Shown here one piece after another: positions 7,288-40,087 of a stretch of DNA of 64,000 nt. The position numbers were made by a program, and so were the translations under genes. The first letter of the stretch is position 1. Each line of letters begins with the position of its first letter. This DNA comes from Escherichia phage nepoznato: the sequence record NC_052658.1, one strand, 5' to 3'. Below the pieces are notes generated by a model. The model had not been told where the DNA came from. It saw only the letters and a list, made by a program, of their open reading frames with translations, and searched no databases.

Positions 7288-7294
7288 GGTGATT

Positions 7295-7876
7295 ATGGCA
7301 GAACTGTTCTATACGGGAGTTGGAAGTAGAGACATATCTGAAGAAGAGTGGGCTTTGATGGTAGGCATAGGAAAATGGCTTTCAAACCTTGGGTTTAAAT
7401 TAAGGTCTGGGAAGGCAGAGGGTAGTGATTCTGCTTTTGAAACAGGTGTCCAAGAGTCTGAAAATCCTACTAACAAGGAGATTTATGTTCCTTGGGAAAA
7501 TTTCAAAGGTAATCAGATTCCAGGTGATGTTATTGTTCTTGCAAAACCAGATACAATGAACTATGCTATCTCTGTGCAATGGATCAAAGATGTTCACCCA
7601 GCTTATGAAAAGCTTAAGCAGGGTGCTAGAAAATTGCACCAACGTAATGTGCATCAGGTGTTAGGCAGAGATTTGGAGAATCCTGCTCCATCGTGTTTCT
7701 TGTTGGCTTGTGCTAATACTGATAAACATGGGGATGCAAAAGGTGGAACAGCTACGGCTTGGAAGATAGCTAAAGCCAATAATGTTCCTTGTTTAAACAT
7801 TCGTGGGAAAACAAAACAAGAGATTTACGATTTTCTACGACCTTTGGTAATGAGGGCAATAACAAGTGATTCCTAA
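7295..7876 (+). CDS. SLOG/DprA-like Rossmann-fold nucleotide-binding protein
   Basis: GVGSRD ... SGKAEGSDSA ... GGTATAW pattern; start moved to ATG after GAGGTG. Confidence 0.4.
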   Translation: MAELFYTGVGSRDISEEEWALMVGIGKWLSNLGFKLRSGKAEGSDSAFETGVQESENPTNKEIYVPWENFKGNQIPGDVIVLAKPDTMNYAISVQWIKDVHPAYEKLKQGARKLHQRNVHQVLGRDLENPAPSCFLLACANTDKHGDAKGGTATAWKIAKANNVPCLNIRGKTKQEIYDFLRPLVMRAITSDS

Positions 7877-13572: not shown

Positions 13573-14309
13573 TAGAACGAAAACCCTTACCAGATAGAGA
13601 TTACTTGTTATCAAGGTTTAGTGTGGAGAATGGTCGTCTTGTTTGGAAACCTAAACCTTCTACAACAAAAGAGAACAAAAGGTGGAATAGCAGATACGCA
13701 GGGAAGATTGCAGGGACTATTGATAAAGTTGGTTACTCTCATGTCAAAATAGATGGTATTGTATACTTGGAGCACAGAGTTTGTTTTAAAATGTACCATA
13801 ATTACTGTCCAGATGTTATAGATCATGATGATGGCAATAAGCTTAATAATGCGGAAAGTAATTTATTGGATAGTAACTATTTATTAAATAATAACAATAG
13901 ACATGTGGATGGGTTAGAAGGTATTTATGAAAAGGATGGTGTTTTTCTTTGGGTTATAAACTACAACCAAGAAACTTTCTCTGTTTCAGGTTTCAAAACT
14001 AAAGAGGAAGCTACTGTAGCTAGAGCTTTAGCAAAACAAGAAATTTTGAAAGGATCTTATATCAAAAAAGAAAAGAAGCGTATAGATAACACTTCAGGAT
14101 TAAGTTGTGTGTTTGTGGCAACAAGAGAGAGAACATTCTTTTTCAAGTTTGTGTTTGACAAGACCACGTATTGCAAATATGGTTTCAACGATCCAGAGAG
14201 ATGTGCTATAGCTCTGGAGAAGCTAAGGTTGAAGGTGATGAAAGAAAAATATAAACCTGCAAATAAAAGCATTTGCGAAAAACATAAGGAGGAGATTTAT
14301 GCCGCGTAG
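13569..14309 (+). CDS. free-standing HNH homing endonuclease-like protein
   Basis: GYSHVKIDGIVYLEHRV and IDHDDGNKLNNAESNL motifs typical of HNH nucleases. Confidence 0.6.
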   Translation: MIERKPLPDRDYLLSRFSVENGRLVWKPKPSTTKENKRWNSRYAGKIAGTIDKVGYSHVKIDGIVYLEHRVCFKMYHNYCPDVIDHDDGNKLNNAESNLLDSNYLLNNNNRHVDGLEGIYEKDGVFLWVINYNQETFSVSGFKTKEEATVARALAKQEILKGSYIKKEKKRIDNTSGLSCVFVATRERTFFFKFVFDKTTYCKYGFNDPERCAIALEKLRLKVMKEKYKPANKSICEKHKEEIYAA

Positions 14310-15114
14310 AGTCATATTCATAACTGGCGCAGGACTATCTGTGGATAGCGGTATCCCAGCTTTTAGAACAGATACTTCTTCAGGGGAGGCGTTATGGTCT
14401 TCTTATAATCTTTCTGAAGTCTGTGACATTTTCAACTTCCGTGACGGTTATCAGCAAGAACAAGGTATTCTTGATGCTATGGGCGGTTTAGATGCGGAAG
14501 GATATAACCTCTACCGTAAAACTCACGACTTTTACAATAAACGTCGCGCGGAATTAGAGAAAGTTGACCCGAATCCGGCACATCTTCAGATTGGGGAATG
14601 GTTCAAAAAACATGGTGCAGAAAAGATTATTAACATCACTACTAACGTTGATGACCTCCTTGAACGAGCAGGAGTAGATAGGGAAGAAGTGCTACATGTG
14701 CATGGTTTTCTTCCTGAAATTACTTTTCAAAGAAAAGCTGGACAACCTACAATTGTAAAAGATGTTGGTTATCAAGCCATAGATGTAGATGACTACCATT
14801 ATGTAAAACCTAATGTAATCTTCTTTGGGGAAGCTGCTCCACTTTACACAGATATGTATCATATTTTTGATACACTGACGGCTCAAGATATGGTTATCGT
14901 TGTAGGCTGCTCTAACCAAGTAATCAACTTCAACTGGGAACTCTTCCCTGCCCTGAATATTGGGGTTAAGATGGTTGTAGTTAACCCAGGTTTGAATTTT
15001 GTAGAACAAACTCTCTACGAAGAACGTGGAGTGCTTGTCTACCGAGAGAAAGCAGGAACAGTCTTCAGTGATGAAGGCTTTATCAAAATGGTCGAAGACC
15101 ACTTAAACAAATAA
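14299..15114 (+). CDS. Sir2-family NAD-dependent protein (sirtuin-like)
   Basis: Sirtuin motifs GAGLSVDSGIPAFR, TTNVDDL, HVHG, KPNVIFFGEAAP; no obvious Zn-binding Cys tetrad. Confidence 0.75.
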   Translation: MPRRVIFITGAGLSVDSGIPAFRTDTSSGEALWSSYNLSEVCDIFNFRDGYQQEQGILDAMGGLDAEGYNLYRKTHDFYNKRRAELEKVDPNPAHLQIGEWFKKHGAEKIINITTNVDDLLERAGVDREEVLHVHGFLPEITFQRKAGQPTIVKDVGYQAIDVDDYHYVKPNVIFFGEAAPLYTDMYHIFDTLTAQDMVIVVGCSNQVINFNWELFPALNIGVKMVVVNPGLNFVEQTLYEERGVLVYREKAGTVFSDEGFIKMVEDHLNK

Positions 15115-18934: not shown

Positions 18935-19144
18935 TCAGTATAGATCTAATGTTAGACTAACAGTTATCCAACAAACAATAACAGTCCATATAACAAGTAA
19001 TGATCTACAAAATACATCCCATTCAAATACATTGTATGTTAACCATTCTCCCATCACAACAGAAGAACCTAACCAACATCCAACAATAACTATAATCCAA
19101 TAAAAGAATCCTACAGTGGAGTATATAGCAAAAGCTTTTAACAT
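18935..19144 (-). CDS. small hydrophobic membrane protein
   Basis: 69 aa, W/I/V-rich predicted TM segments; strong RBS GGAGGAAAG. Confidence 0.45.
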   Translation of the reverse strand: MLKAFAIYSTVGFFYWIIVIVGCWLGSSVVMGEWLTYNVFEWDVFCRSLLVIWTVIVCWITVSLTLDLY

Positions 19145-19557
19145 CTTTCCTCCAGAAGTTGTTCAACAGTTTGACGAGTATGATTGTCCCAGTAAACCTT
19201 AGTGAAGTCAAGAGTTCCTTGTTCGTTTCTCTTAGTTTCGAAGAAGTATCCGCCTTCTCTTTCTACTCTGTCTCTAATGTGCTCTATGAGGTGCTTTTTA
19301 CAAGATGCTGATAAACAGTAGTCATACTCCCCACGAAGTAACGCTATAGCTGCAAGTCTGTTATCACCAACTTGAGATATTGTCCAAGAAAGCATACTAC
19401 CTTCTATACCTAAAGGTGTTTGTCGGATTGAATATCCACCATACCGACTGATAGAAATTATGGAGAGTGGTTCTCCTGTTAGAGATCTTCCTAATGCACC
19501 TTCTGTTGGACTTCCTTCAATAATACGTTTGAAAAAAGCTTTGATCTTACCTAACAT
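19138..19557 (-). CDS. hypothetical protein
   Basis: 139-aa ORF. Confidence 0.5.
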   Translation of the reverse strand: MLGKIKAFFKRIIEGSPTEGALGRSLTGEPLSIISISRYGGYSIRQTPLGIEGSMLSWTISQVGDNRLAAIALLRGEYDYCLSASCKKHLIEHIRDRVEREGGYFFETKRNEQGTLDFTKVYWDNHTRQTVEQLLEERC

Positions 19558-19701
19558 AAGTCCCCCTTAAAAACTTACTTGTTTAAAGTATCTCTTACTT
19601 GTTCTGCTTGACGTTTAGTAATAAAAGTTCCAACAGAAACATTAAACTCATTGACTACAGAGAACGATCCATCACGATTCTCACGAATATTAAACAACTT
19701 C

Positions 19702-19905
19702 TTACTCATTACTACCTCCTTCAATGCTTTGTGCCGTACCGTCCCAAGACATTAGAATGTTTGCCAATAGTTCACGAGGCTCTTTAAACCAAACTTCCAT
19801 CTCATCTAGAATCTCGTCCGTGTCGTAAGTATAACCTGGAACACCAAGTTCACATTTCTTAAGGTAGCTTTCTAACCAACGGTGATAATTCTTAACCCCA
19901 TTCAT
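19702..19905 (-). CDS. hypothetical protein
   Basis: 67-aa ORF. Confidence 0.45.
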   Translation of the reverse strand: MNGVKNYHRWLESYLKKCELGVPGYTYDTDEILDEMEVWFKEPRELLANILMSWDGTAQSIEGGSNE

Positions 19906-20278
19906 ACTGTGCTACCTTTTCTTTTACCCAATTTACACGATCTTTGTCATAATGTTGAGTGCCAATGAAAAGAGCATTGTGGAAGCTTTCAGCACCGAAA
20001 GGGTAGATTGGATCTAAACCATCTTCTTCAAATAACATTTTTAGTCTCTTTGATGTAGATTTCTTAGTTTCTGAATCGTAGCTTGTGGTTATAAGCCAAT
20101 CTTCCAAACAACGACATAACCCTTGACGAGAATCCCAAGGAAAAACACAATCTCCGACAGGAGCTTGTTCAGCCCATTTCAACCAGCCTTTAAAAAAGTT
20201 ATACAATATGTAGTCTTCAGTGTAATACATTAGCGCCTCCTTTACGTATACAATAACACCCCGCAGAACGGGGTGCAA
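19892..20278 (-). CDS. hypothetical protein, member of GLC.CL/YPF paralog family
   Basis: Shares W..W......GLCRCLEDWL ... YPFG pattern with 21170, 24605, 28158, 31243. Confidence 0.5.
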   Translation of the reverse strand: MHPVLRGVIVYVKEALMYYTEDYILYNFFKGWLKWAEQAPVGDCVFPWDSRQGLCRCLEDWLITTSYDSETKKSTSKRLKMLFEEDGLDPIYPFGAESFHNALFIGTQHYDKDRVNWVKEKVAQYEWG

Positions 20279-20281
20279 CTA

Positions 20282-20893
20282 TTATTTAATCTGTTTAAAA
20301 ATTTCGTTTGGAACGGTACCGTTTAAAATACCTTCTACGATCTCTTGTGCAGATGTGTAAGAGAGTCCAAAAGAAGCTACGCCTAAAATTGCCTCCTTCA
20401 AAGGATCTGGCAGGGGTTCAAAATTACCTGCAACAAAGCCACCTGCACAAGCAGCGCCTTCATCATCCCAGAAAACAACTGCTACATCGTTACCATGCGA
20501 AGTTGTGCGATGTGCAATAACTTCAACTTCTGTTCCTTCTTTAGGAACAGAATAAGAACTGTCCCAAGAATATCTTTCCAAATCAGGAACAAAGATAACC
20601 TTTTCACCTACTGGCGGCAGTTCACAACGATAATACCAAGAATTTTTTTCGTTCATTGTTTTATTTTCCTCCACGTCTTCAAAAGTAACGATCCAATCGT
20701 AGCCGTAAGAAAACGGATATTTTAGATCTAAAGAATAAGTTTGACCTAGATCGTCCTCAACAAGAACCATCCTGTCAAAGTTTGCGATGTTAGGATTATG
20801 TTTAATGACAGGGTATGTTTCCCCTACAGTAAATTGTCCCAAATGGTAAAGTTCATCTCTCCAAGTAATTTGGATATGAGTGCATTGAATCAT
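20282..20893 (-). CDS. hypothetical protein
   Basis: 203-aa ORF. Confidence 0.55.
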   Translation of the reverse strand: MIQCTHIQITWRDELYHLGQFTVGETYPVIKHNPNIANFDRMVLVEDDLGQTYSLDLKYPFSYGYDWIVTFEDVEENKTMNEKNSWYYRCELPPVGEKVIFVPDLERYSWDSSYSVPKEGTEVEVIAHRTTSHGNDVAVVFWDDEGAACAGGFVAGNFEPLPDPLKEAILGVASFGLSYTSAQEIVEGILNGTVPNEIFKQIK

Positions 20894-20897
20894 AAAA

Positions 20898-21170
20898 TCA
20901 CCCCCAAGAAATATTTATATATCTTACAATGTTTGCACTGTCTAAAGCCATGTTTGCACCACACCCACGCTCGCGCCAATAACTAACAATACCTTCACAG
21001 ATACTCTCTTGTATCTTCTTATCACTTGGCATTTCTAGTATAAGACTTGGGTTGTGGATGTTTATGTTATAATATCCTTCCTCTGCGGCTTGAGCTACCA
21101 ATTTACTTACTTTTTCAAAGTACGGGGAATTAGTGGCATCTGCCATTGCTTTTAAGGTTTGTCTATCCAT
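20898..21170 (-). CDS. hypothetical protein
   Basis: 90-aa ORF. Confidence 0.5.
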   Translation of the reverse strand: MDRQTLKAMADATNSPYFEKVSKLVAQAAEEGYYNINIHNPSLILEMPSDKKIQESICEGIVSYWRERGCGANMALDSANIVRYINISWG

Positions 21171-21568
21171 TATTCTGCCTCATCATAGAAGAAATCCAAC
21201 TCTTGTTCCAGTTGTTTAACTCGCTCCTTAACCCACTGTACACGTTTTTCATTAAACATGCAACGTTTTTCCTTACACTCTTGCTCAAAAGATTTTGCTG
21301 TGTTAAACGGGAAAGTTGTATCTAAACCAGCATTTTCAAAACTGGCTAATTGCATACCATAAACAGAATATGCTAAAGAATGATCGGCTCGAAATTCATC
21401 ACTTATATACATACGTAGACCTCGGCATAAGCCAACATCAGCGTAACCACTTTCTCGTGGAAAGAGACGGAGGTGTTCTAACCAATTATTATAGAAATCT
21501 AAAAGAATCCTCTTACACTTCAAATCAATTGTCATAAAAAGTTTCTCCTTCATCGAACAAGTTGGCAA
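21170..21568 (-). CDS. hypothetical protein, GLC.CL/FPFN paralog family
   Basis: FYNNWLEHL..GLCRGL...FPFN pattern. Confidence 0.5.
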   Translation of the reverse strand: MPTCSMKEKLFMTIDLKCKRILLDFYNNWLEHLRLFPRESGYADVGLCRGLRMYISDEFRADHSLAYSVYGMQLASFENAGLDTTFPFNTAKSFEQECKEKRCMFNEKRVQWVKERVKQLEQELDFFYDEAE

Positions 21569-21935
21569 GATTGTTCACCGCAATTTGGGTGGAAAGAAGA
21601 CAACTGTTTGCAGACACATAAGCACGGGCTATTTTGTAAACATAAACTTTCGTATTGCAATCTTCTAAAATCGGAAGACTTTCATCGATAGCATCTATAA
21701 CACTAAACATCACATCTAAAACTTTAATTGTAAGTATTGTATCTATATCTTCGTAACCTTTTTCAATCCGACCTGAATAGAAAGTATAGTCCTCAACAGT
21801 TCGTCGTTTAAATTGGCGCATAAAATCAGAACCATCTGTAGCAGAATTGAACAAATTTTCAAAAAATACCTCCCATCCGGCAAAAAGGGCTGACAGCATG
21901 ATTAAGTGATCTACAGATTCATTTTCTTGTTTCAT
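21525..21935 (-). CDS. hypothetical protein
   Basis: 136-aa ORF. Confidence 0.5.
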   Translation of the reverse strand: MKQENESVDHLIMLSALFAGWEVFFENLFNSATDGSDFMRQFKRRTVEDYTFYSGRIEKGYEDIDTILTIKVLDVMFSVIDAIDESLPILEDCNTKVYVYKIARAYVSANSCLLSTQIAVNNLANLFDEGETFYDN

Positions 21936-21943
21936 ATCCTCTC

Positions 21944-22621
21944 CTATTTAATGTTCAATCTAGCACACAAGCGAGAAACAGTTTTAGCATCCCACTTACC
22001 ACCACGTGCTGTTGCGATTTTCTTACTATTGAATTTTTCAGCAATAGTTTTGTAAGGTGTATTTAAATCTCTAAGGATTTCTAAGCGTTCACGGAATGTC
22101 TCTGCAAAAGCATCTGCTTTAACAGAATTGTATTCCATTTTTCCTTTTCTACGTGCAGCGGCAGTTTTAGGATTAGCACTGCCTAATAAAACACCTTTGC
22201 TTTTTGCTACAGCAAGACCCTTTTTAATACGATCAGCAATACCTCTGACTTCTTGTTCAGCCAAAACAGACAGAAGCTGTATAACCATTTTATCTGCGTC
22301 TGGCATGATGGCTATCTTAACATCGATCATTTCTAGAAGAGTTGCTACGGAGGCGTTGTTACGACCCAAGCGGTCAACTTTAGCTACCAATAAAGTTGCT
22401 CCGGTAGCTTTACACATTTCAACCGCTTTAACCAGTTCCTTACGTTGCTTCCAATCGCCCTTACCAGAATAGTATTCAGAAAATTGACCAATAACTTCAG
22501 CATCAGGCACAGAGTCTAAGAAGTAACGGATATCGTTCTCTTGGCTCTCCATACCATATTGTGCCTCACCTTTTTTCTGTTTAGAAAGACGACTGTAAAC
22601 AACAAACTTTTTCATAACCAC
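21944..22621 (-). CDS. small serine recombinase (resolvase/invertase family)
   Basis: N-terminal VVYSRLS catalytic-Ser region, VAKVDRLGRN, C-terminal HTH-like tail; about 225 aa. Confidence 0.8.
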   Translation of the reverse strand: MVMKKFVVYSRLSKQKKGEAQYGMESQENDIRYFLDSVPDAEVIGQFSEYYSGKGDWKQRKELVKAVEMCKATGATLLVAKVDRLGRNNASVATLLEMIDVKIAIMPDADKMVIQLLSVLAEQEVRGIADRIKKGLAVAKSKGVLLGSANPKTAAARRKGKMEYNSVKADAFAETFRERLEILRDLNTPYKTIAEKFNSKKIATARGGKWDAKTVSRLCARLNIK

Positions 22622-22685
22622 TCCTAAACCATTGCTGTATTCTCACTTTACAAAACGAATAAACACTTGTCAAGGTATTTATTAT

Positions 22686-22898
22686 TTACAGCCATTCTAC
22701 TTTTAAGCAGTATTCTTCGACATGTTGTTTACGCTTGTTTTTGTCTATGTAAGTGTATTCAACAAATGTCCCAAGATAATCCTTGTCCACATTGTGTTGG
22801 CTATTAATTGGACATTTAGTACGACAAACCCGTTGCCACTGACGAAGAATTACGGCTTTGTTTTTAGGATCAAAGGGATGAGGGTAATGTGCCTTCAT
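22686..22898 (-). CDS. hypothetical protein
   Basis: 70-aa ORF. Confidence 0.45.
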   Translation of the reverse strand: MKAHYPHPFDPKNKAVILRQWQRVCRTKCPINSQHNVDKDYLGTFVEYTYIDKNKRKQHVEEYCLKVEWL

Positions 22899-23222
22899 TC
22901 ACGCCTCCTGTTTTAGTCGAAAAATATTTTGAATAACGAGAGATGTATAGTTATCACTTAGTCCCATAAGTTCTACTTCCAAGTTTCGAATATCTTCCAC
23001 CGTAGGAGGATATGTTGGTAAAAATGCTTGAGCATTACCAGATCCAACCTCATTGCTGTAAGCAGTTGTAAAATTGTAAGATACAAAACATGAAACACCT
23101 TTTTGTCGGTACCCGATTAATCGACGAATACACCAGATAAGAGCCAAACCTATGAGAACACCTCCTAAACCAGCTAACAAGAAGGATAAGTTCATAATAG
23201 CTTCGTTAACAACTGCTTGCAT
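22899..23222 (-). CDS. membrane protein (single TM)
   Basis: Hydrophobic stretch LSFLLAGLGGVLIGLALIW. Confidence 0.5.
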   Translation of the reverse strand: MQAVVNEAIMNLSFLLAGLGGVLIGLALIWCIRRLIGYRQKGVSCFVSYNFTTAYSNEVGSGNAQAFLPTYPPTVEDIRNLEVELMGLSDNYTSLVIQNIFRLKQEA

Positions 23223-23232
23223 TCTTTTCTCC

Positions 23233-23580
23233 TTAGTTGTGTAAACCCAAATGTGCTACAACTTCTCTACGATAAGATAACTGCATAGCGATTTTATAGC
23301 CAGGATGAAAACCATTTACATCAATGTCATCAAACCAAACCTCAAATGAACCGTGTTTAAGAGTCATTAAGTTAATATACCATTCAATAGTATAATGATC
23401 GTTAGCAATACCTTCGATGTAAAATTCTCGACAACAGTGAGATAAATCTTCACTTGTTTCACGTTTCCAGTCTTTGATAGCACCCTTCTCTTTGGCTTTA
23501 TTCAGAATGTGGATCAGGTCTTCAACTTGCATATTCTCTCCTTTAGTTCCAACTAATAATAATGTGTTTGATAATCCCAA
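23233..23580 (-). CDS. hypothetical protein
   Basis: 115-aa ORF. Confidence 0.5.
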   Translation of the reverse strand: MGLSNTLLLVGTKGENMQVEDLIHILNKAKEKGAIKDWKRETSEDLSHCCREFYIEGIANDHYTIEWYINLMTLKHGSFEVWFDDIDVNGFHPGYKIAMQLSYRREVVAHLGLHN

Positions 23581-24097
23581 AAATACTGTGCTCTGCGGTT
23601 GCCAATGTTACATCCAAACCTTTTGCACGTAGCATTGTAGCTACAACATTTGCCCCTCTTTTCTGTTCACTTATCTGTTCATAAGAAGAAGGGTTATTGC
23701 ACAAACCAAAACTGGAAGGTTCAAAGTATTTTTCAAACTTCCCTTGTTCCGCACAATCTTCAATCTCTAATAGAACGGCGTCTACCATTTCAGTAAAATG
23801 GGAATTTGCTTGCAGTGCTTTATTACGCAGTTTATCACGTAAACTTCCCGTAGATTCTTCCTGCTCTTCTGTCTGTCCATCTTCACAGAAAGGATGAAGT
23901 TCAGCCCAGTCCCAAGCATCTCCTTCTAAAGCAAATAGAGTGTTGTAATTGAAGAAAGTGCAGCGCGGATATTCCCCGTTGAAAGAATCTTTCAGCAGAA
24001 TATATTTCTTACCGTTTGCATGGAAGAGTTCTCCTTTGATAACCTTACCTACAAGGATATCACTGTTAGTGGAACGGGTGCAAATAAACTTTTTCAT
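23543..24097 (-). CDS. hypothetical protein
   Basis: 184-aa ORF. Confidence 0.5.
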   Translation of the reverse strand: MKKFICTRSTNSDILVGKVIKGELFHANGKKYILLKDSFNGEYPRCTFFNYNTLFALEGDAWDWAELHPFCEDGQTEEQEESTGSLRDKLRNKALQANSHFTEMVDAVLLEIEDCAEQGKFEKYFEPSSFGLCNNPSSYEQISEQKRGANVVATMLRAKGLDVTLATAEHSIFGIIKHIIISWN

Positions 24098-24159
24098 GAT
24101 TTTCTCCTCTTTGTTTCGATGAGATGATTATGACAAAGACAGATCCTTCTGTCAACTAT

Positions 24160-24381
24160 TTATTTCCATTCCCCTTGGTGTTCTTTGATCTCATAAGAGT
24201 AGTATTCGAACATGCTCATACAAACCACACCAGACATTTCTAAACAAAGAGGTTTACTATTATAAAAGGCACTTATCATTCTTCCAGCTTTATCTGCTGA
24301 CTCTTTAGTATCACATCCACAAACTGTTCTCACCCAAGGATCAGGGCCATCATATTTAAGACGCACAATCCACATGATCAT
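24160..24381 (-). CDS. hypothetical protein
   Basis: 73-aa ORF. Confidence 0.45.
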   Translation of the reverse strand: MIMWIVRLKYDGPDPWVRTVCGCDTKESADKAGRMISAFYNSKPLCLEMSGVVCMSMFEYYSYEIKEHQGEWK

Positions 24382-24605
24382 TCTTCCATCTCAAACCATT
24401 CAGGGAACACTTTGCGGAAGACCCGCGTGTTTTCTAAGAGAAATTCCAACTCTTTTTCCAAATCTGCGTTCCAACCGTTTATTTTAACACGGATTGCCAA
24501 TGCACTTGCACGGCGACTCAATTCTTGACAGATTGGATCACGCAGAACTATTGAGTCATAAAACTGACAAACAGCCTCAAGTTCATACCAGTTATAATCC
24601 GACAT
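24378..24605 (-). CDS. hypothetical protein
   Basis: 75-aa ORF. Confidence 0.45.
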   Translation of the reverse strand: MSDYNWYELEAVCQFYDSIVLRDPICQELSRRASALAIRVKINGWNADLEKELEFLLENTRVFRKVFPEWFEMEE

Positions 24606-24931
24606 TATTCATCCTCCTCTGCAATACGATCTCTTACCCAATTAATCCTGTCCACGTTCAGGTGACATACCTCTGCATCTGATTCTAAGACATATGCATC
24701 GTAGTTCTCATTGAAAGGGAGTGCTTGACTCAACCCTTTGTGGTAAAACTGTGCGTGCATTTCATCTGACAAGGTTGTTATAAGGGGATTGTAATTACCT
24801 CTGTGCACATAATCGAACAAGTTGGCACACAAACCACAATCCCGCCGAAAAGGTTTACCATCAGGAGCACCAACATCAATCCATGCTAGATAAATTTTAT
24901 AAAACTCCATCAACCTTGTGCTTGTTTTCAT
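24605..24931 (-). CDS. hypothetical protein, GLC.NL/LPFN paralog family
   Basis: FYKIYLAWI..GAPDGKPF..DCGLCANLFDYV ... LPFN. Confidence 0.5.
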   Translation of the reverse strand: MKTSTRLMEFYKIYLAWIDVGAPDGKPFRRDCGLCANLFDYVHRGNYNPLITTLSDEMHAQFYHKGLSQALPFNENYDAYVLESDAEVCHLNVDRINWVRDRIAEEDE

Positions 24932-25169
24932 TTAGCCACCTCGTTAGTTTTTCTTGCTCTTTGTTTGCGCGTTCTAAGCTTCTGAACTTTAAACAGAGGG
25001 AACGAGAATCCCTACCCATGCACAAGCTTTCATCTAAGCTGTGCTCCCCAACCAACCAAAGAGAGTATGTTTGAACATCTAACCCATAGTTTCTGTCTTT
25101 CCATAATCTCACCCCAAGAACATCAAAAGGAGCTTCCGCGACTAAAGAAAGAAACCGATCTTTATTCAT
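24897..25169 (-). CDS. hypothetical protein
   Basis: 90-aa ORF. Confidence 0.45.
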   Translation of the reverse strand: MNKDRFLSLVAEAPFDVLGVRLWKDRNYGLDVQTYSLWLVGEHSLDESLCMGRDSRSLCLKFRSLERANKEQEKLTRWLNENKHKVDGVL

Positions 25170-25231
25170 ATTACACCACCTTGCTCACGTTGATAATGTA
25201 TGTATACCATACATAAAATAAATGTCAAGGC

Positions 25232-25432
25232 TTATCGACACAGATAGTTGTAACGATCTGCTTTATCCTCGGCTTCAGCAAAGTCAGCAATCAAGGAAGT
25301 TTTGAGTTCTTCCAACTCTTTCACCCAAGAGTCGTAATCGTTCTGTGTTTCTCCAATAGTTTGGAGAAAACAATCGTCGTAGCCAATAGACATGGCTAAC
25401 TCGATAATACGTTCCAGTTTTTCTTCCATCAC
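25232..25432 (-). CDS. hypothetical protein
   Basis: 66-aa ORF. Confidence 0.45.
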   Translation of the reverse strand: MMEEKLERIIELAMSIGYDDCFLQTIGETQNDYDSWVKELEELKTSLIADFAEAEDKADRYNYLCR

Positions 25433-31617: not shown

Positions 31618-31955
31618 GATAATCTCCTCTCATCATTAGCCATCTTTCATGGCAATCATCAATCACCAACATCATACGATCAATCTTCGGCAATTACAAT
31701 CGAATTATCATAGGGGATTCCTATCAATTATCCCATATATACTGATTATTTTTGACACCCCACTCTTGTATAAAAAGTAACCCAAAATATCTACGGGGAG
31801 AGATTATTTCGGGACACCCTGTTTCATGGCAATCATGGCAAGAATATCTAATAGAATCAATATCATATGGCAAAAATCATGGCGTATACGTAAGAAGTGC
31901 TTAACGCGAATTTTCGGGCCGTCAGGTCCACGCAGCGACAATTCCCAAATATCAT

Positions 31956-31979
31956 GCGAATGAGAATAATTATCATTCG
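31956..31979. promoter_or_regulatory. Fur-box-like palindrome
   Basis: GCGAATGAGAATAATTATCATTCG; GATAAT/ATTATC hexamer arrangement. Confidence 0.3.
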
Positions 31980-32137
31980 TATTCAATGACTTATGCAAGG
32001 CTCATGCCAACATAGCGACAAGGTGGGCCACTTGATTATAAATCACACAAACACTTATTTATCAATGGTTTGGCAACTTCATCATATGACGGAACATTGT
32101 CAACTGATCCCGCTCATGACAAGCAGACTATTATTTA

Positions 32138-32156
32138 TATGAGAATGATTATTATT
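32138..32156. promoter_or_regulatory. Fur-box-like element
   Basis: ATGAGAATGATTATTATT. Confidence 0.25.
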
Positions 32157-32213
32157 TAAACGTTTATTAACATAAAAACTAAAATAAATCAAGATTATTC
32201 TGATTTTATTTAC

Positions 32214-32410
32214 GTTTAAGAGAAGGTGCTCAACATCCTACCGGATCGCCGTTGGCAATCCTGCGGATATTTACGCCCCCATGATTAAGGTTTATCTCTT
32301 TTCTTAGTGCTCAACATATCGCGTAGCGATAGTATTCGCCCCCGTGATATTTGCTCTTCTCTTAGTGCTCAACATTCCCGCCTGTGGCGGTAACATTTCG
32401 CCCCCAAAAT
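32214..32410. repeat. three direct iterons: CTTAGTGCTCAACAT box, variable short hairpin, (A)TTTCGCCCCC box
   Basis: Boxes near 32225, 32304 and 32363, each followed 30-40 bp later by CGCCCCC; spacing about 60-70 bp. Confidence 0.6.
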
Positions 32411-32453
32411 TATTGACTTTTATTCTATTATGTGCATAGTGTGCAATGTATCG

Positions 32454-32472
32454 GAATGATGATAATCATCCT
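32454..32472. promoter_or_regulatory. Fur-box-like palindrome
   Basis: GGAATGATGATAATCATCC (GATGAT-A-ATCATC). Confidence 0.3.
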
Positions 32473-32779
32473 CCCATTGCCCCCATAATTATTGCCATGC
32501 TAATTGTTTCCTTATGTAATTATCACAATGACTATTGTTATTGCGCTAATGTTATGATCTTGGTAATTACATATAATGCTAATAATAAGCCAGCGCAATA
32601 AGTGTAAGCGTCATTACGCTTGCAATTATTGCAAGCTACGCAGTAACAAGAAATAACCATCACCGATGGTTATGATTGTTGGGGTGTAGTTGGCTTATTA
32701 TTAGCTCGCTACGTGTCCGGCGTAGCGTGCTAATGATGAGTCTGTAAATGATTCATTGTGTAATGATTTCATTCAGGCA

Positions 32780-33292: not shown

Positions 33293-33661
33293 TTACTTTG
33301 TGCTGTTGTAAACGTTATCGCGTTCAACCATCACCGCAAGGCGGATCAGTTGATCAGTTGTATCGCGTAAATTGTCGGGCCATGTTTTACTGTTCCAGCT
33401 ATCCAGGTTTGATTGTATATAGGTTTCAATGGCTTGATCCATATTATCAAACAAGTTTTCCTCCAGGCTCTCGGCTGTTTCACACTGGAAAGCATTAGCG
33501 ACACTATTAATCAATAAGCAAGCCAGTAAATCAGCGTTGCGCCAATTTTTACGGATAGTTTCATCTGTCAGATAACCAACGAGATTAACCTTTGCGCCAG
33601 TGGTGGACGTTGCGATCACTTCTTGCGCTTTTTCAACTGCTTTAATTGCTGATTTGCTCAT
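33293..33661 (-). CDS. hypothetical protein (cassette 1 ORF)
   Basis: Track ORF 33293-33739 runs into the promoter; start moved to ATG (MSKSAIK) after RBS AAAGAGG. Confidence 0.5.
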   Translation of the reverse strand: MSKSAIKAVEKAQEVIATSTTGAKVNLVGYLTDETIRKNWRNADLLACLLINSVANAFQCETAESLEENLFDNMDQAIETYIQSNLDSWNSKTWPDNLRDTTDQLIRLAVMVERDNVYNSTK

Positions 33662-33677
33662 CTTCTTTTCCTCTTTG

Positions 33678-33739
33678 TGGGCTTGCTGTATTGCTCGCCC
33701 TACGTGATAAATAATAATATAAGGGTGATCCCGTGTCAA
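33678..33739 (-). promoter_or_regulatory. PeSL-like early promoter with weak leader hairpin (unit 1)
   Basis: Minus strand TTGACA, 17 bp, TATTAT, TATCACGTAGG, weak GC hairpin, RBS. Confidence 0.5.
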
Positions 33740-33877
33740 TAGGTAGAATTGTAAAGATTTGATAGTTTATCTCTTTGATGCTTTGTTGTTTGATAGATGT
33801 TAGCTATCAATATATAGCGGGGTCGTCCGGTGATTATCTTCCCTGTTTCCAGTGCCGCCCGTTCAATAAGCATAACA

Positions 33878-33905
33878 AAAAACAGGACAAAAACAAGCCC
33901 TGTTT
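33878..33905 (-). terminator. probable intrinsic terminator (minus strand)
   Basis: ACAGG...CCUGU hairpin followed by U-run on minus strand. Confidence 0.35.
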
Positions 33906-33913
33906 TGTAAAGA

Positions 33914-34117
33914 TTAGATGATCTGCATATCTTCCACGATAATTTCTAATTTCCAAACAAGATGATCTAAGCTCCCTGATAAAAATGATTCCGATACATA
34001 ACCGCCATCGGACACCGTAGCAAGGATCTCGCCATTTGCTTGCTCTTTGATTTGAACATCCAGGCGGTTAGCCTTTGCTTTGTTCAGGACGGCGATCAGG
34101 CGGTTAGCTGTAGTCAT
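33914..34117 (-). CDS. hypothetical protein (cassette 2 ORF)
   Basis: Start moved to internal ATG (MTTANRL) 20 nt after leader hairpin. Confidence 0.5.
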   Translation of the reverse strand: MTTANRLIAVLNKAKANRLDVQIKEQANGEILATVSDGGYVSESFLSGSLDHLVWKLEIIVEDMQII

Positions 34118-34140
34118 GATGTTTCTCTCTTCTGTTGTGA

Positions 34141-34197
34141 GCGGCACTATTGCCGCCCTACGTGATAAACTTTACTACCTGTTGCGCCTGCTGTCAA
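34141..34197 (-). promoter_or_regulatory. PeSL-like early promoter with leader stem-loop (unit 2)
   Basis: Minus strand TTGACA, 17 bp, TAAAGT, TATCACGTAGG, GCGGCA-AUAG-UGCCGC. Confidence 0.6.
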
Positions 34198-34198
34198 A

Positions 34199-34303
34199 CT
34201 ATTTTTTCTTTGCTTCCATTCGTCTAAGGTTACGGCTTGACTTGTTACGCAAGGCGCTCAAATCATCATAACCTTTAAAAGGTTGCATATTGTTCGGATT
34301 CAT
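34199..34303 (-). CDS. small basic protein (about 34 aa)
   Basis: Minus ORF MNPNNMQPFKGYDDL... with RBS AAGGGG; stop abuts -35 of unit 2; approximate. Confidence 0.3.
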   Translation of the reverse strand: MNPNNMQPFKGYDDLSALRNKSSRNLRRMEAKKK

Positions 34304-34313
34304 GCTACGCCCC

Positions 34314-34592
34314 TTAACGGTTATAAACGTCGTGAATAGTGATAAAGGCGCTACGACCATAAGCCGCCAAATCGGGATTGATCCAAGTGTTATCTAACAG
34401 TGTTTCAAGGACGATAGAATCATCATGAATAGCATCATAGAAATCAGGATGTATGATCGTTTCAATATCGTCCGGTGTTAGTTCCCAATTAAGGTTGCAA
34501 ACCGCTAAAACGTCTACCAATAACTTCCAATCTTGCAAATTAGTGGTTAATACTGTTTTCATTTCTTCGGTAGTGAGTTTAACGATGGTCAT
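34314..34592 (-). CDS. hypothetical acidic protein (cassette 3 ORF)
   Basis: 92-aa ORF about 20 nt after leader hairpin. Confidence 0.5.
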   Translation of the reverse strand: MTIVKLTTEEMKTVLTTNLQDWKLLVDVLAVCNLNWELTPDDIETIIHPDFYDAIHDDSIVLETLLDNTWINPDLAAYGRSAFITIHDVYNR

Positions 34593-34612
34593 GATATTTT
34601 CTCTTTTTGATG

Positions 34613-34673
34613 AGGCGGAAAGTGTTCCCGCTCTCGATGTGAAACATTATACAACACTAAAAACTGATTGCAA
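34613..34673 (-). promoter_or_regulatory. PeSL-like early promoter with leader stem-loop (unit 3)
   Basis: Minus strand TTGCAA, 16 bp, TATAAT, TTTCACATCGAGA, GCGGGAA..TTCCGCC hairpin. Confidence 0.55.
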
Positions 34674-34683
34674 GTGTTTTTAA

Positions 34684-35013
34684 TTATCGCTTGCTATTCT
34701 CTTTCTCTACTTCCCCGATAGCATCGCAAAATTGATTGATAACATCAGGGTGAACGTCAATAGCGTCAAACAATCCGCTATTAGTTGCATTTTGTAAAGC
34801 AATAGACAATTCAGCCAGGGCGTTCAATTGTTTTACACGGAATTGATCGCGGATTGAATCCATATATTCCATCACTGCACTTTCCAGTGTTTCCCATGTA
34901 GTCGCTGCACCTTCGCCTACAGTTACATCCCACAAATTAGACTCGATTTGAGTCAGTACTACAGTTGGGCGACCAGCAACAACACTGCGGGCTAATTCGA
35001 TTTCATTAAACAT
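34684..35013 (-). CDS. hypothetical protein (cassette 4 ORF)
   Basis: 109-aa ORF. Confidence 0.5.
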   Translation of the reverse strand: MFNEIELARSVVAGRPTVVLTQIESNLWDVTVGEGAATTWETLESAVMEYMDSIRDQFRVKQLNALAELSIALQNATNSGLFDAIDVHPDVINQFCDAIGEVEKENSKR

Positions 35014-35020
35014 TTTATTT

Positions 35021-35079
35021 TCCTCTTTGTGGGGAGAACTATTCTCCCCTTCATGTAAAACAGTCTACAGGTTTATTTC
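35021..35079 (-). promoter_or_regulatory. PeSL-like early promoter with leader stem-loop (unit 4)
   Basis: Minus strand TTGACA, 16 bp, TAGACT, TTTTACATGAA, GGGGAGAA-UAG-UUCUCCCC. Confidence 0.6.
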
Positions 35080-35089
35080 TCAATGTCAA

Positions 35090-35269
35090 CTATTTATTAT
35101 CGGGATTGTAAGCCAGGACCGCGCCACTTGCTTTCACCGCCCCAGCCTCATAGCTGCGTAAATCTTCCTCGGTGATATTCATTGCGATCACTTCCTCGAC
35201 CTCTACGCCAGTAGCAAGGGCGATCTCTTTGATGATATTTGATGTTTTGATAATGTCGATAGTTTTCAT
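35090..35269 (-). CDS. hypothetical protein
   Basis: Track ORF 35090-35317; start moved to ATG (MKTIDIIK) after AAGGGG. Confidence 0.45.
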   Translation of the reverse strand: MKTIDIIKTSNIIKEIALATGVEVEEVIAMNITEEDLRSYEAGAVKASGAVLAYNPDNK

Positions 35270-35279
35270 AGTAAGCCCC

Positions 35280-35399
35280 TTACAGAAGAATAGCCGCGAT
35301 GGTTGAAATGAAAGCAATAACAGCGACGATGATCATCATGTTTTTACCTTCGGTTACTGCTACGTTTTCGGTGCTGTATTCTACGGTATATTTGCTCAT
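35280..35399 (-). CDS. small tail-anchored membrane peptide (about 39 aa; cassette 5 ORF)
   Basis: MSKYTVEYSTENVAVTEGKNMMIIVAVIAFISTIAAILL; first ORF after unit 5 leader. Confidence 0.4.
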   Translation of the reverse strand: MSKYTVEYSTENVAVTEGKNMMIIVAVIAFISTIAAILL

Positions 35400-35415
35400 C
35401 TTTCTACCCTCGTTT

Positions 35416-35475
35416 GTGGTTGGCTGTTGTCGCCGCCCTATGTATTTAATATACACTACCACGGCAGCATTGCAA
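35416..35475 (-). promoter_or_regulatory. PeSL-like early promoter with weak leader hairpin (unit 5)
   Basis: Minus strand TTGCAA, 16 bp, TATATT, TACATAGG, GC-rich leader. Confidence 0.5.
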
Positions 35476-35488
35476 GTTTATTTTGCAA

Positions 35489-35779
35489 TTATTTTTCTTC
35501 TGTAAAAAGCCCATCATTAACAACGGCGGCGATGATTTCACGGGCCATTGATTCGGGAAACGGTAGGCTATAATCCTGGCTTGTTTCATCTTCGCAAGAT
35601 ACCCAATGATAAGCTAATGAATAATACCCCTTAGAAACGGTTTTCAGGCTAACAATGATCACGGTGTTTTGTTCGTTGGTAAACGTCGCCGTGATGGTCT
35701 GGTCGTTTTGCACCATATCCATCAAACGGGCGTTATCATTTACCAGGGAAAACATTAGCACGGTGTTAGCTTTACTCAT
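35489..35779 (-). CDS. hypothetical protein (cassette 6 ORF)
   Basis: Start moved to ATG (MSKANTV) 20 nt after leader hairpin. Confidence 0.5.
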   Translation of the reverse strand: MSKANTVLMFSLVNDNARLMDMVQNDQTITATFTNEQNTVIIVSLKTVSKGYYSLAYHWVSCEDETSQDYSLPFPESMAREIIAAVVNDGLFTEEK

Positions 35780-35799
35780 GATTGCATCCTCAAAGGGGC

Positions 35800-35854
35800 G
35801 CGGCACCATTGCCGCCCTACACGATAACTATAACACAATGTAAAACAGGATCAA
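35800..35854 (-). promoter_or_regulatory. PeSL-like early promoter with leader stem-loop (unit 6)
   Basis: Minus strand TTGATC, 16 bp, TATAGT, ATCGTGTAGG, GCGGCA-AUGG-UGCCGC. Confidence 0.55.
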
Positions 35855-36057
35855 CCTTTATTTTTCCACGGTGTCAGCTTGTTAATCATTGGTGATAAAT
35901 AGCGTTTACCAACGTAAAACAGTACGCCAACTGATGCAACGGCGGCGACCTCATGCATAGCCGACGGGAAACGGGTATCATAATAAGATCCAATAATAGC
36001 GATAGCGGCAACGGCTGCAACGTCGATAATGATTTTTTCTTGTTTTGCGGTGATCAT
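35851..36057 (-). CDS. small membrane protein (cassette 7 ORF)
   Basis: 68 aa with hydrophobic AAVAAIAIIGS and VAAVASVGVLFYVG segments. Confidence 0.5.
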   Translation of the reverse strand: MITAKQEKIIIDVAAVAAIAIIGSYYDTRFPSAMHEVAAVASVGVLFYVGKRYLSPMINKLTPWKNKG

Positions 36058-36079
36058 AATATTTACCTTTTTGTATGGT

Positions 36080-36136
36080 GGGGAACTATTCCCCGCCTGA
36101 TGTAATACAGTTTAACAGGTCCGGTTATGGTGTCAA
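36080..36136 (-). promoter_or_regulatory. PeSL-like early promoter with leader stem-loop (unit 7)
   Basis: Minus strand TTGACA, 16 bp, TAAACT, TATTACATCAGGC, GGGGAA-UAG-UUCCCC. Confidence 0.6.
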
Positions 36137-36142
36137 CCGTTT

Positions 36143-36328
36143 TTAAAGATATTTTATGCTAATAACGTTTTCCGGTTTAACCTTGTTATAATGTGCATCA
36201 ACATAGATCAAACCATCGTCAGAAAAGCCCAGGATCACGCCCTGCGCAATAAAACCGTATTCGTCACGGTAACGCACGGCTATTTTTAATGTTGCGCTGT
36301 ACGCTGTTTTAAGCTCGTTTAAAGTCAT
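36143..36328 (-). CDS. hypothetical protein
   Basis: 61-aa ORF after a terminator-like hairpin and RBS GAGGAT. Confidence 0.45.
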   Translation of the reverse strand: MTLNELKTAYSATLKIAVRYRDEYGFIAQGVILGFSDDGLIYVDAHYNKVKPENVISIKYL

Positions 36329-36357
36329 TTTTGTTTATCCTCTACATGTAAAAAGAA

Positions 36358-36381
36358 AGGGCGCTTGGTGCGCCCTTGTTA
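36358..36381 (-). terminator. intrinsic terminator or attenuator inside the array
   Basis: On minus strand AAGGGCGCACCAAGCGCCCUU then UUCUUUUU; near-identical to 33272 hairpin. Confidence 0.5.
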
Positions 36382-36383
36382 TG

Positions 36384-36530
36384 TTAATCCTCTAAATCCA
36401 TCCAATTATATTTGTCACTCTTCCCGCGCTTTGTTTTATTACGCTTGTCGCCTTTGCGGATCACTTCCTCGTTCCAGGCCTTGCGGATCTTGGAAGATTG
36501 AATTTTTTCTGCGCGATTAGATGTATTCAT
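36384..36530 (-). CDS. small basic protein (about 48 aa; cassette 8 ORF)
   Basis: MNTSNRAEKIQSSKIRKAWNEEV...; RBS AAGAGGAAAC; below track cutoff. Confidence 0.4.
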   Translation of the reverse strand: MNTSNRAEKIQSSKIRKAWNEEVIRKGDKRNKTKRGKSDKYNWMDLED

Positions 36531-36550
36531 TTTGTTTCCTCTTCATATGA

Positions 36551-36603
36551 GCGGCACCATTGCCGCTATATTGTTAATTTAAACTGTTTTGTAAAATTGT
36601 CAA
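36551..36603 (-). promoter_or_regulatory. PeSL-like early promoter with leader stem-loop (unit 8)
   Basis: Minus strand TTGACA, 16 bp, TAAATT, GCGGCA-AUGG-UGCCGC. Confidence 0.55.
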
Positions 36604-36609
36604 GGTTTA

Positions 36610-36960
36610 TCATTCATAAGAGCAAGCAAGGATCACGCCTGCAATATAAAGCCAATAATTTTCCCTTTCTCGTTGGATTTTATCATCGCGGCTATTCTCT
36701 TTAATGTATCCCCAGGATGTTAACAGGCGATCAATTTCCCAATATTCGAAAGCGATATTGATATCTGATGGCAAACCTTGTAACCAACTTGCCAGGGCGC
36801 GGACTATTGATCCGTTATATCGTTTTTGATTATCAGGGTACCAGTACTCTGATTCAAAGCGGCGCATCAGTTCGGCTATCTTCTCTTTTTCGCCAGTGAT
36901 GCCATAGTCGATTGATGCTAGGATGTAACCTTTAATTTCGTTTTGTGCTTTCATGGTCAA
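36610..36960 (-). CDS. hypothetical protein
   Basis: 116-aa ORF immediately downstream of 36967-37188 (co-transcribed). Confidence 0.5.
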   Translation of the reverse strand: MTMKAQNEIKGYILASIDYGITGEKEKIAELMRRFESEYWYPDNQKRYNGSIVRALASWLQGLPSDINIAFEYWEIDRLLTSWGYIKENSRDDKIQRERENYWLYIAGVILACSYE

Positions 36961-36966
36961 TCTCTC

Positions 36967-37188
36967 TTATTTACTTACAACCAGTTGATAACCGTTTTCT
37001 ACATTGCTAAACACTGTTAGCCCGTCGTCGCGCTCACTCATCAACAAGCAAGGCGATAACATGCGTTCGGCAGCTTTACACTCATTATAAGCGGCAGTGA
37101 TGTCTCCTGCTGCCTTGTCTTCTGTAGTAAATGTCTCGTTTACGTAAACCTGACCAGCAACAACGGCGACAATAGCAAAAGTAATCAT
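36967..37188 (-). CDS. hypothetical protein (cassette 9 ORF)
   Basis: 73-aa ORF with N-terminal hydrophobic segment. Confidence 0.5.
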   Translation of the reverse strand: MITFAIVAVVAGQVYVNETFTTEDKAAGDITAAYNECKAAERMLSPCLLMSERDDGLTVFSNVENGYQLVVSK

Positions 37189-37221
37189 GATGTTTCCTTG
37201 TTAATAGTGGTTTCTCTTCTC

Positions 37222-37259
37222 TATAGCGCCCATTATAAAGCGCTATAACGAAAAGTCAA
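37222..37259 (-). promoter_or_regulatory. sigma70 promoter with -10 inside an 8-bp-arm palindrome (operator-like; unit 9)
   Basis: Minus strand TTGACT, 16 bp, TATAAT; TATAGCGC-N10-GCGCTATA inverted repeat spans the -10. Confidence 0.55.
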
Positions 37260-37262
37260 CGA

Positions 37263-37430
37263 TTATTTTTTAAGGCTTAAAGTACCTAACTTGTCAGCAT
37301 GACGCAGACCAGGGAAGATCCATTTGCCTGATTCATCTTTTACCGGAGCTTTAAGCGTAGCGCCCAGGTTGGCGGCGTTAACTTTACGTGCAACGTTGCG
37401 AGCGGCTTCACGGGTAGCGCAAGTGATCAT
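37263..37430 (-). CDS. small protein (about 55 aa; cassette 10 ORF)
   Basis: MITCATREAARNVARKVNAANLG...; 20 nt after unit 10 hairpin; below track cutoff. Confidence 0.35.
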   Translation of the reverse strand: MITCATREAARNVARKVNAANLGATLKAPVKDESGKWIFPGLRHADKLGTLSLKK

Positions 37431-37454
37431 GATGTTTTCCTCTTCTCTTTGTTA

Positions 37455-40086: not shown

Positions 40087-40087
40087 A

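Follow-up and report, generated by a model that had tools for sequence, protein, structure and literature searches.

A small serine recombinase, intact and under selection, in a virulent phage lineage with no invertible segment and no prophage form

Introduction

Escherichia phage nepoznato (NC_052658.1; the 64,000-nucleotide stretch analysed here is called the window throughout) carries on its minus strand, at 21944–22615, a gene for a small serine recombinase. The closest described systems are the Tn3/gamma-delta resolvases and the Sin/beta enzymes, with Sin and gamma-delta resolvase the best sequence and structure matches of the phage protein. It is like them in catalytic fold, in the active-site residues Y, R, S, R, D, R and R, in the presence of helix E (the dimer/tetramer and DNA-crossing helix of serine recombinases) and in overall size. 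It differs in its surroundings, which offer a 64-bp spacer only in place of an adjacent multi-subsite res region and an early operon in place of a transposon or plasmid context. It differs also at its C terminus, where the resolvase helix–turn–helix (HTH) of ~45 amino acids (aa) with its GR arm gives way to a module of ~75 aa in four helices, apparently of the large-serine-recombinase type. Large serine recombinases themselves (SPbeta SprA, Bxb1 and phiC31; about 400–700 aa) share with the phage protein the order of catalytic domain, helix E and helical module, as well as the ...G..W....V..L motif of PF07508, but at 223 aa it lacks the full recombinase domain, the zinc ribbon and the coiled coil.

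Three further comparisons are informative. Hin, Gin, Cin and Pin are also small phage-borne serine recombinases, and annotations often borrow the invertase name for the phage gene, yet this gene lacks inverted sites on its flanks, the genome lacks an invertible segment, and the protein has no Hin-type HTH and is only weakly similar. P1 Cre, a tyrosine recombinase of a temperate plasmid-prophage, acts at a defined loxP in cyclisation and multimer resolution. The analogy with it is one of function only, in that a phage site-specific recombinase cyclises a terminally redundant linear genome and resolves multimers, whereas nepoznato is virulent, its enzyme is a serine recombinase and no lox equivalent was identified. 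The Bacillus subtilis YneB family (NF049883) is similar in length (211-aa profile) and its function is likewise not known; it is the best NCBIfam match, but membership was rejected on a score far below the cut-off (32.5 against 175). An IS607-type serine transposase, with an N-terminal MerR-like HTH and a C-terminal catalytic domain, was also rejected, as the catalytic domain here is N-terminal.

The recombinase is already annotated in public records, under labels that vary in GenBank (serine recombinase, resolvase, DNA invertase, recombinase family protein, hypothetical); it is a member of a large unnamed subfamily. A paper on the same genus reported that no recombinase genes were predicted (PMC10269720), and the literature searched held no experimental work on the gene. 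Phapecoctaviruses and their phi92-like relatives have been proposed for phage therapy and biocontrol (PMC10282059, PMC10269720), and automated safety screens read any 'recombinase' or 'integrase' as a lysogeny marker. The use of a conserved site-specific recombinase to a strictly lytic phage is a genuine question, if one of little surprise to the specialist. Here we find the recombinase intact and selected, with a catalytic domain joined to a shortened recombinase domain, in a genome with no invertible segment and a lineage with no prophage form. That it is a fixed part of such a virulent lineage helps to interpret these flags. We propose, tentatively, that it acts on the phage's own DNA.

The gene, its signals and its annotation

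The initial annotation, made from the letters of the window, had placed a serine recombinase of about 225 aa at 21944–22621, among small early open reading frames (ORFs) of an otherwise lytic-looking, T4-type genome. The minus-strand ORF at 21944–22621 is exact, at 225 codons counted from GTG, but the GTG at 22621 lies in frame two codons 5′ of an ATG at 22615. On the minus strand AGGAG-N5-ATG is read from the sequence at ORF codon 3, so a product of 223 aa from 22615, beginning MKKF, is likely. The family assignment was borne out (below), as were the place within a long minus-strand run of small ORFs, a phage early operon, and the lytic appearance. The T4-type label was not: the 5 kb around the recombinase are 98.7% identical to Escherichia phage vB_EcoM-Ro121c4YLVW, a Phapecoctavirus, and 96–98% identical to ~60 further phAPEC8-like phages, and by this sequence comparison the source genome is a Phapecoctavirus (phAPEC8-like) of the subfamily Stephanstirmvirinae. 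The gene and its signals are as follows.

21944–22615, minus strand: serine recombinase coding sequence, from ATG at 22615 to the TAG stop at 21946–21944; 223 aa
22621–22625, minus strand: Shine–Dalgarno AGGAG, 5 nt upstream of the ATG, read from the sequence
22645–22673, minus strand: sigma70-like promoter TTGACA-N17-TAAAGT in the 64-bp spacer 5′ of the gene; 10/12 consensus match only
20256–20276, minus strand: terminator-like hairpin, also annotated in Schickermooser

The gene has the 64-bp spacer upstream and none downstream. A consensus scan recovers the promoter-like site at 22673–22645, yet across the whole region promoter-like matches are no more frequent than chance predicts; the hairpin at 20256–20276 probably terminates the transcription unit that holds the recombinase. 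Its early-block neighbours comprise a Sir2-like gene, a methyltransferase, a phosphatase and many small early genes of no known function.

Several public records misdescribe the gene. Those of phAPEC8 and Schickermooser annotate a 128-aa C-terminal fragment only, the phAPEC8 gene itself being intact, and some relatives' records name the recombinase 'methionine ABC transporter ATP-binding protein', which is plainly wrong. The upstream 70-aa ORF (22686–22898, minus strand) is a 'putative ABC transporter ATP-binding protein' in several records, and in others this label has slipped from it onto the recombinase, a propagated misannotation. Our analysis corrects these recurrent errors, namely the transporter name, the 128-aa call and 'DNA invertase'.

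Active site and domain architecture

The protein matches Pfam PF00239 (Resolvase) over aa 7–144 (E = 5.4e-18; 65.9 bits against a cut-off of 23.3), PHROG 125 'DNA invertase' at 1e-32 and, by sequence, Tn3/gamma-delta resolvase structures in the PDB at E ~3e-6, far beyond chance; similarity to Gin is weak (E about 0.006–0.01). We aligned it with 14 and with 52 relatives, in a family that spans 30–100% identity. In the resulting 15- and 53-sequence alignments, together with gamma-delta resolvase, Y7, R9, S11, Q25, R58, D81, R82 and R85 are invariant and correspond to gamma-delta Y6, R8, S10, Q19, R45, D67, R68 and R71. The initial annotation had held that mutated catalytic serine or arginines would count against its proposal; these residues are intact and invariant, and the enzyme therefore looks catalytically competent. 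The predicted parts of the protein map as follows.

22301–22615, minus strand: catalytic domain, aa 1–105, from the two alignments, an AlphaFold2 model (predicted local distance difference test, pLDDT, 89) and Foldseek matches to the Sin and gamma-delta catalytic domains
22583–22585, minus strand: codon of the predicted nucleophile Ser11, an invariant column aligned to gamma-delta Ser10
22199–22291, minus strand: long helix E, aa 109–139, from AlphaFold2 secondary structure; aligned to resolvase residues ~103–142
21959–22171, minus strand: C-terminal four-helix module, aa 149–219, from PF07508, the SPbeta profile match and Foldseek; carries the ...TARGGKW...V.RL... motif

The AlphaFold model, built on the 53-sequence alignment (pLDDT 89.2), has a beta–alpha catalytic domain, helix E and four C-terminal helices, and stops after the fourth. 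Foldseek ranked the Sin and gamma-delta catalytic domains first, with a probability of 1.0 to the catalytic domains of Sin, gamma-delta and TP901-1, and its longer alignments, of ~250 columns, were to the large serine integrases Bxb1 and SPbeta.

The C-terminal domain, used as a single sequence against the PDB, gave no matches, resolvase HTHs included. PF07508 ('Recombinase') matches weakly at aa 189–218 (E = 3e-3, below cut-off, covering profile positions 19–48 of 102 only). A profile of 28 family C-termini returned one natural match, residues 206–244 of the SPbeta integrase recombinase domain (E = 2e-4), spanning the motif ...IA..LN..G..TARGG.W....V.RL; stronger-scoring matches to designed helical repeats were rejected as spurious. 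The module appears to be homologous to the first helices of the large-serine-recombinase 'recombinase domain', and not to an HTH of the Hin or resolvase type. The protein ends just after the ...TARGGKW...V.RL... motif, without the rest of the recombinase domain, the zinc ribbon or the coiled coil.

Many proteins resemble it over the full length. A profile search of 1.84 billion protein representatives gave 3,735 clusters at E ≤ 1e-30. Of the top 150, the majority are 214–240 aa long and cover profile positions 1–219. A word-indexed search gave 93 relatives of 213–258 aa, many on contigs of ~150 kb. To judge from these sequences, a Resolvase domain with a shortened recombinase domain is the architecture of a large ~220-aa family and not a one-off truncation. 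Public sources give this family generic names only ('recombinase family protein', 'DNA invertase Pin-like'). Some top relatives (P0094–P0102 and others) are 400–900 aa long with 2–7 separate matches to the 220-aa profile; either several recombinase units are fused in tandem in them, or gene calls have been merged.

Selection, distribution and change of slot

An identical 223-aa protein is found by tblastn in about 60 phage records. Compared with phage nieznany, the gene has 18 codon differences, all 18 synonymous; compared with WPEC2 it has 20, again all synonymous, and the neighbouring ORFs in these comparisons are 94–99% identical in protein. The complete lack of non-synonymous changes among 18–20 codon differences shows strong purifying selection. 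Orthologues reach 74% identity in phiWec-type phages, 57% in Justusliebigvirus (phi92-like), 52–57% in Klebsiella and Serratia relatives and 35–38% in Vibrio and Shewanella myoviruses of about 125–150 kb. Some ICP1 isolates have a 30% identical orthologue in an accessory region. In ICP1 isolate 2017_DRC_48 (745–4857) the homologue is of 251 aa, within an eight-gene block between gp30 and gp41; the block annotations carry no earlier GP number and the homologue is probably accessory. The suggestion in the initial annotation of a mobile-element remnant sits poorly with the 18–20 synonymous against no non-synonymous changes and with orthologues in sister genera and distant marine phages.

In VEcB, ICP1, Shewanella phage 1/4, Vibrio 277E43-1 and the source phage, the gene follows a spacer of 57–105 bp that contains a sigma70-type promoter. 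In the ICP1, Vibrio and Shewanella phages the promoter-proximal leader forms a stem with the ribosome-binding site (RBS) of the recombinase gene, which suggests tight translational control.

The gene has not kept one position. The VEcB order gp054–methyltransferase–gp052–gp051–recombinase–gp049–gp048–gp047–NinI–gp045–DprA is syntenic with window 3693–7849 (plus strand) and with phiWec181, and in both the source phage and phiWec181 the gp051/gp049 slot lacks the recombinase, which lies 17 kb off on the opposite strand.

5061–5117, plus strand: 'empty slot' between the orthologues of VEcB gp051 and gp049, a spacer with a terminator hairpin; site of the recombinase and its promoter in Justusliebigvirus

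In Shewanella phage 1/4 the order is recombinase, a small ORF and then a DprA-like gene, and the DprA-proximal slot is therefore probably the older position. Such non-orthologous slots in sister genera (VEcB gp051/gp049 against a place 17 kb away on the other strand), the accessory region of only some ICP1 isolates and heterogeneous neighbourhoods on viral contigs would all suit a selfish or accessory cassette of gene plus promoter, shifting between slots with little benefit to the phage. We hold this to be decidedly unlikely. None of the 18–20 codon changes is non-synonymous, which speaks of selection on the protein; the 57% inter-genus identity of the recombinase tracks the flanking genes (38–76%), as expected of one old relocation; and neither slot has junction repeats or terminal sites, while every close relative has the gene in the same place. 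Because its divergence matches that of the flanking genes and junction repeats are absent, the change of slot is best read as a single old relocation, in a gene passed on vertically, and not as continuing mobility. The VEcB gp049 orthologue was considered as a partner or directionality factor and dropped, as it stayed in the old slot when the recombinase relocated. The ends of the phiWec181 record, considered as physical termini, are uninformative: the record begins within a gene.

No invertible segment

A composite genome of ~150 kb was made of the window plus NC_052654 positions 5355–91235. A repeat search of the window and a short-word self-BLAST of the composite returned no inverted repeats of ≥20 bp, except bidirectional terminator hairpins and one 36-bp AT palindrome. 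We then compared the whole genome, as seven 22–24-kb blocks, with all phage records. For every block, the tail-fibre module included, 55–64 relatives match as one co-linear place, and no block has a flipped segment in any of these 55–64 sequenced relatives. An invertible segment should be flipped in a large share of ~60 independent isolates; none is, and the invertible switch put forward in the initial annotation is accordingly disfavoured.

BLAST places in excess of the co-linear one come from record ends and from the WPEC records. Large rearrangements in WPEC1/2/4/6 (155–161 kb) were set aside, as the WPEC2 junctions are ~150-bp pieces from scattered loci; the four appear to be chimeric short-read assemblies. 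WPEC2 (PV691511.1) has ~150-bp fragments at 38600–41700 and an implausible junction at 6537/6538.

These results bear most directly on a Gin/Hin/Cin-type invertase that would flip part of the phage genome, such as a promoter or the tail-fibre genes. PHROG 125 and several GenBank records do say 'DNA invertase', and bacterial relatives occur in prophages, sometimes adjoining tail or baseplate genes. Three bacterial prophage loci held no convincing inverted repeats apart from one 29-nt pair around 861 bp at one relative's locus, a weak candidate. We give hardly any credence to such an invertase, given the lack of inverted repeats of ≥20 bp in the composite beyond the terminators and the AT palindrome, the co-linearity of the tail-fibre module and of all other blocks, a C-terminal domain that is not a Hin-type HTH and the marginal similarity to Gin.

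The 29-nt pair lies at 21–49/911–939 of the contig of relative P0071 (86% complementary), brackets four small ORFs and is ~5 kb from this 258-aa relative; in each arm CTGAAATA-N6-TATTTCAG forms an internal dyad. P0071 is followed, 1 kb downstream, by a 448-aa large serine recombinase. In the window, an inverted pair at 20915/23051 (38 nt, 74%) was rejected: both arms are inside ORFs, the match is at chance level and no isolate is inverted.

No site beside the gene and no prophage form

Recombination sites were also sought next to the gene. A res site with two or three subsites was not found beside it, and is not strictly excluded elsewhere in the genome. The spacer does hold one dyad.

22658–22683, strand not assigned: imperfect dyad AATAAATAC-N8-GTGTTTATT that overlaps the −35 hexamer; present once in the window

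As a crossover site the dyad was rejected, being unique in the window with ~0.3 expected by chance, and it is probably either chance or an operator. No dyad is common to the upstream spacers of VEcB, ICP1, Shewanella 1/4, Vibrio 277E43-1 and the source phage. Its position over the −35 hexamer of the recombinase's own promoter would fit autorepression, for which resolvases are known (Tn3 TnpR is an autorepressor), and hence a protein that no longer recombines and serves as a site-specific DNA-binding regulator or an architectural protein. This is very improbable, as residues needed for catalysis alone are invariant across a family of 30–100% identity and the dyad is not conserved in other genera.

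Megablast of window 19000–25000 against 5,426 complete E. coli genomes gave no match, and the authors of an earlier study likewise report no prophage matches (PMC10282059). More than 540 relatives of the recombinase are present in IMG/VR, many of them near contig ends, and 8 of 80 viral-contig loci have a separate tyrosine integrase about 0.5 kb or less from the relative; the small serine recombinase is therefore not the integrase there. An integrase for rare lysogeny or for a plasmid-like carrier state could draw on the contig-end positions and on membership of the same superfamily as phage serine integrases, with a related C-terminal module. It is the least credible of the explanations weighed here, against the unmatched E. 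coli genomes, the lack of prophage matches, the separate integrases and a 223-aa protein without the zinc ribbon and coiled coil used for att-site choice and directionality.

A possible role on the phage's own DNA

Recombinase homologues accompany DNA replication and recombination functions rather than tail genes. ORFs within 4 kb of the gene were clustered at the best 80 IMG/VR loci, where neighbourhoods are heterogeneous and no partner gene is universal. Recurrent neighbours at these loci are an ERF annealing protein, a DprA-like protein and replication-initiator-like proteins of the DnaA_C and HTH_36 types, and further a cytosine methyltransferase (Dcm), a tyrosine integrase and the large terminase. 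The recombinase adjoins the DprA-like/NinI block in Justusliebigvirus and in Shewanella phage 1/4.

We favour conservative site-specific recombination at one site on the phage's own DNA, leading to cyclisation, end-joining or multimer processing, with a probability of roughly 0.35. Host RNA polymerase would transcribe the recombinase early from its own promoter, and the enzyme would join two copies of one short site on phage DNA. Only terminally redundant linear genomes, concatemers or multimers would offer such a site as a pair. An incoming genome bearing direct terminal repeats (DTRs) would then be cyclised or end-joined, or replication multimers would be processed, in parallel with Cre/lox in P1 and res/resolvase in plasmids. 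We invoke a single site per genome because no candidate site is present as a repeat in the genome, and the replication and recombination company of the homologues fits a role in cyclisation or multimer processing. The resolution of replication multimers, another option of the initial annotation, would fall within this family of ideas.

Genome ends of a suitable kind are described in the subfamily. Stephanstirmvirinae genomes are reported to end in DTRs (PMC12695924), and phage BME3 (Justusliebigvirus) has a 342-bp DTR by PhageTerm (PMC12210895). Position 1 of BME3 aligns to window ~31903 and many independent phage records start or stop at window ~32230, and window 31903–32240 is therefore the probable DTR.

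31903–32240, strand not assigned: probable ~340-bp DTR equivalent and physical genome end, from the BME3 alignment and record ends; candidate substrate only

On the packaged DNA this puts the recombinase gene ~9.3 kb in from the right end. Palindromes that resemble the E. coli Fur box occur at 31957–31976, 32139–32158, 32444–32462 and 41700–41719 (for example, ATGAGAATAATTATCATTCG and GGAATGATGATAATCATCC), two of them inside the DTR and conserved with BME3 (GATAATGATTATCATT). They may reflect control by iron and Fur, or serve an architectural purpose at the end of the genome. Just within the DTR boundary, at window 32228–32480, are three to four direct repeats of ~58 bp, each made of GTGCTCAACAT, then a variable palindrome, then CGCCCCC-N-TGAT; these could be degenerate promoter modules, iterons or terminase signals.

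A number of points weigh against this role. T7 and other DTR phages make concatemers with no site-specific recombinase, and this, with the lack of an identified recombination site for the enzyme in the phage genome, is why our confidence stays low. Packaging requires concatemers, so simple 'resolution' would not obviously help. The AATAAATAC-N8-GTGTTTATT dyad is absent from the orthologue loci of VEcB, phiWec181, ICP1, Shewanella and Vibrio phages, and the conserved DTR palindromes look like host Fur boxes, not recombinase sites. The recombinase was not detected among the listed Vequintavirinae-sized relatives. Finally, the Schickermooser copy (13938–14600 there, equivalent to window 21944–22615) differs by at least six small indels that add up to 19 bp and are confined to the catalytic half; the remainder of the gene is ~97% identical. 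It is either a pseudogene or a sequencing problem; if the sequence is correct, the recombinase would be dispensable in culture.

That dispensability in one laboratory isolate, should the Schickermooser sequence hold, would also agree with an enzyme that acts on foreign DNA (the host chromosome, a prophage or satellite, a plasmid or a co-infecting phage) in takeover, anti-defence or competition, and would, for instance, excise, invert or break its target. The gene is early, has a host-type promoter and stands among Sir2-like, methyltransferase, phosphatase and unassigned small early genes, and no target site is visible in the phage genome. Serine recombinases take part in ICP1/PLE phage–satellite conflict (PMC9638900; PMC6002521), and host Pin-type invertases influence phage adsorption (PMC12529663). 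ICP1 Adi, also considered, is not a recombinase and offers a conceptual parallel only. Action on foreign DNA, the chief alternative, is possible but doubtful: counter-defence genes are usually variable and patchy, whereas this one is invariant in ~60 isolates from many hosts and countries, and hosts of the homologues span Escherichia, Klebsiella, Vibrio and Shewanella, for which a common target is not obvious.

Bolder forms of both ideas, with a lox-like site in or near the DTR that cyclises or end-joins the genome independently of homologous recombination, or with an enzyme that is a weapon against a site in host or competitor DNA, seem to us rather unlikely. If true, either would give a first function to a widespread ~220-aa 'mini large-serine-recombinase' family. 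The recombinase's site, if found, could yield a compact new recombinase tool and a reason why strictly lytic phages retain the enzyme.

Other repeats and a paralogous early gene family

The sole repeated family in the composite genome consists of promoter-plus-stem-loop modules at 33–42 kb, in direct orientation. They were considered as recombinase sites and rejected, as nothing ties them to the enzyme. Window 33600–41100 (minus strand) has at least ten such modules of ~60 bp flanking small ORF cassettes, in a region that is hypervariable between isolates. Each comprises an early-type promoter (TTGACA ... −10), a GC-rich stem-loop in the 5′ untranslated region (for example, GCGGCAATGGTGCCGC), an RBS and an ATG; those at 39472 and 41002 are 100% identical over 42 nt. 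Similar promoter-early stem-loop cassettes of T4-type phages probably recombine homologously, without a site-specific recombinase.

The 36-bp palindrome recovered in the repeat search (NC_052654.1, 68902–68937) is AT-only and near-perfect, and lies in a ~480-bp gap between divergent units beside a tRNA cluster, where it may mark an origin or a region of divergent promoters. Close to the recombinase, the 132-aa ORF at 21170–21568 has 30–35% identical copies at several further positions of the same early block (20898–25300) and bears a VOG7392 label in nieznany; here and in Schickermooser it belongs to a paralogous family of small early proteins.

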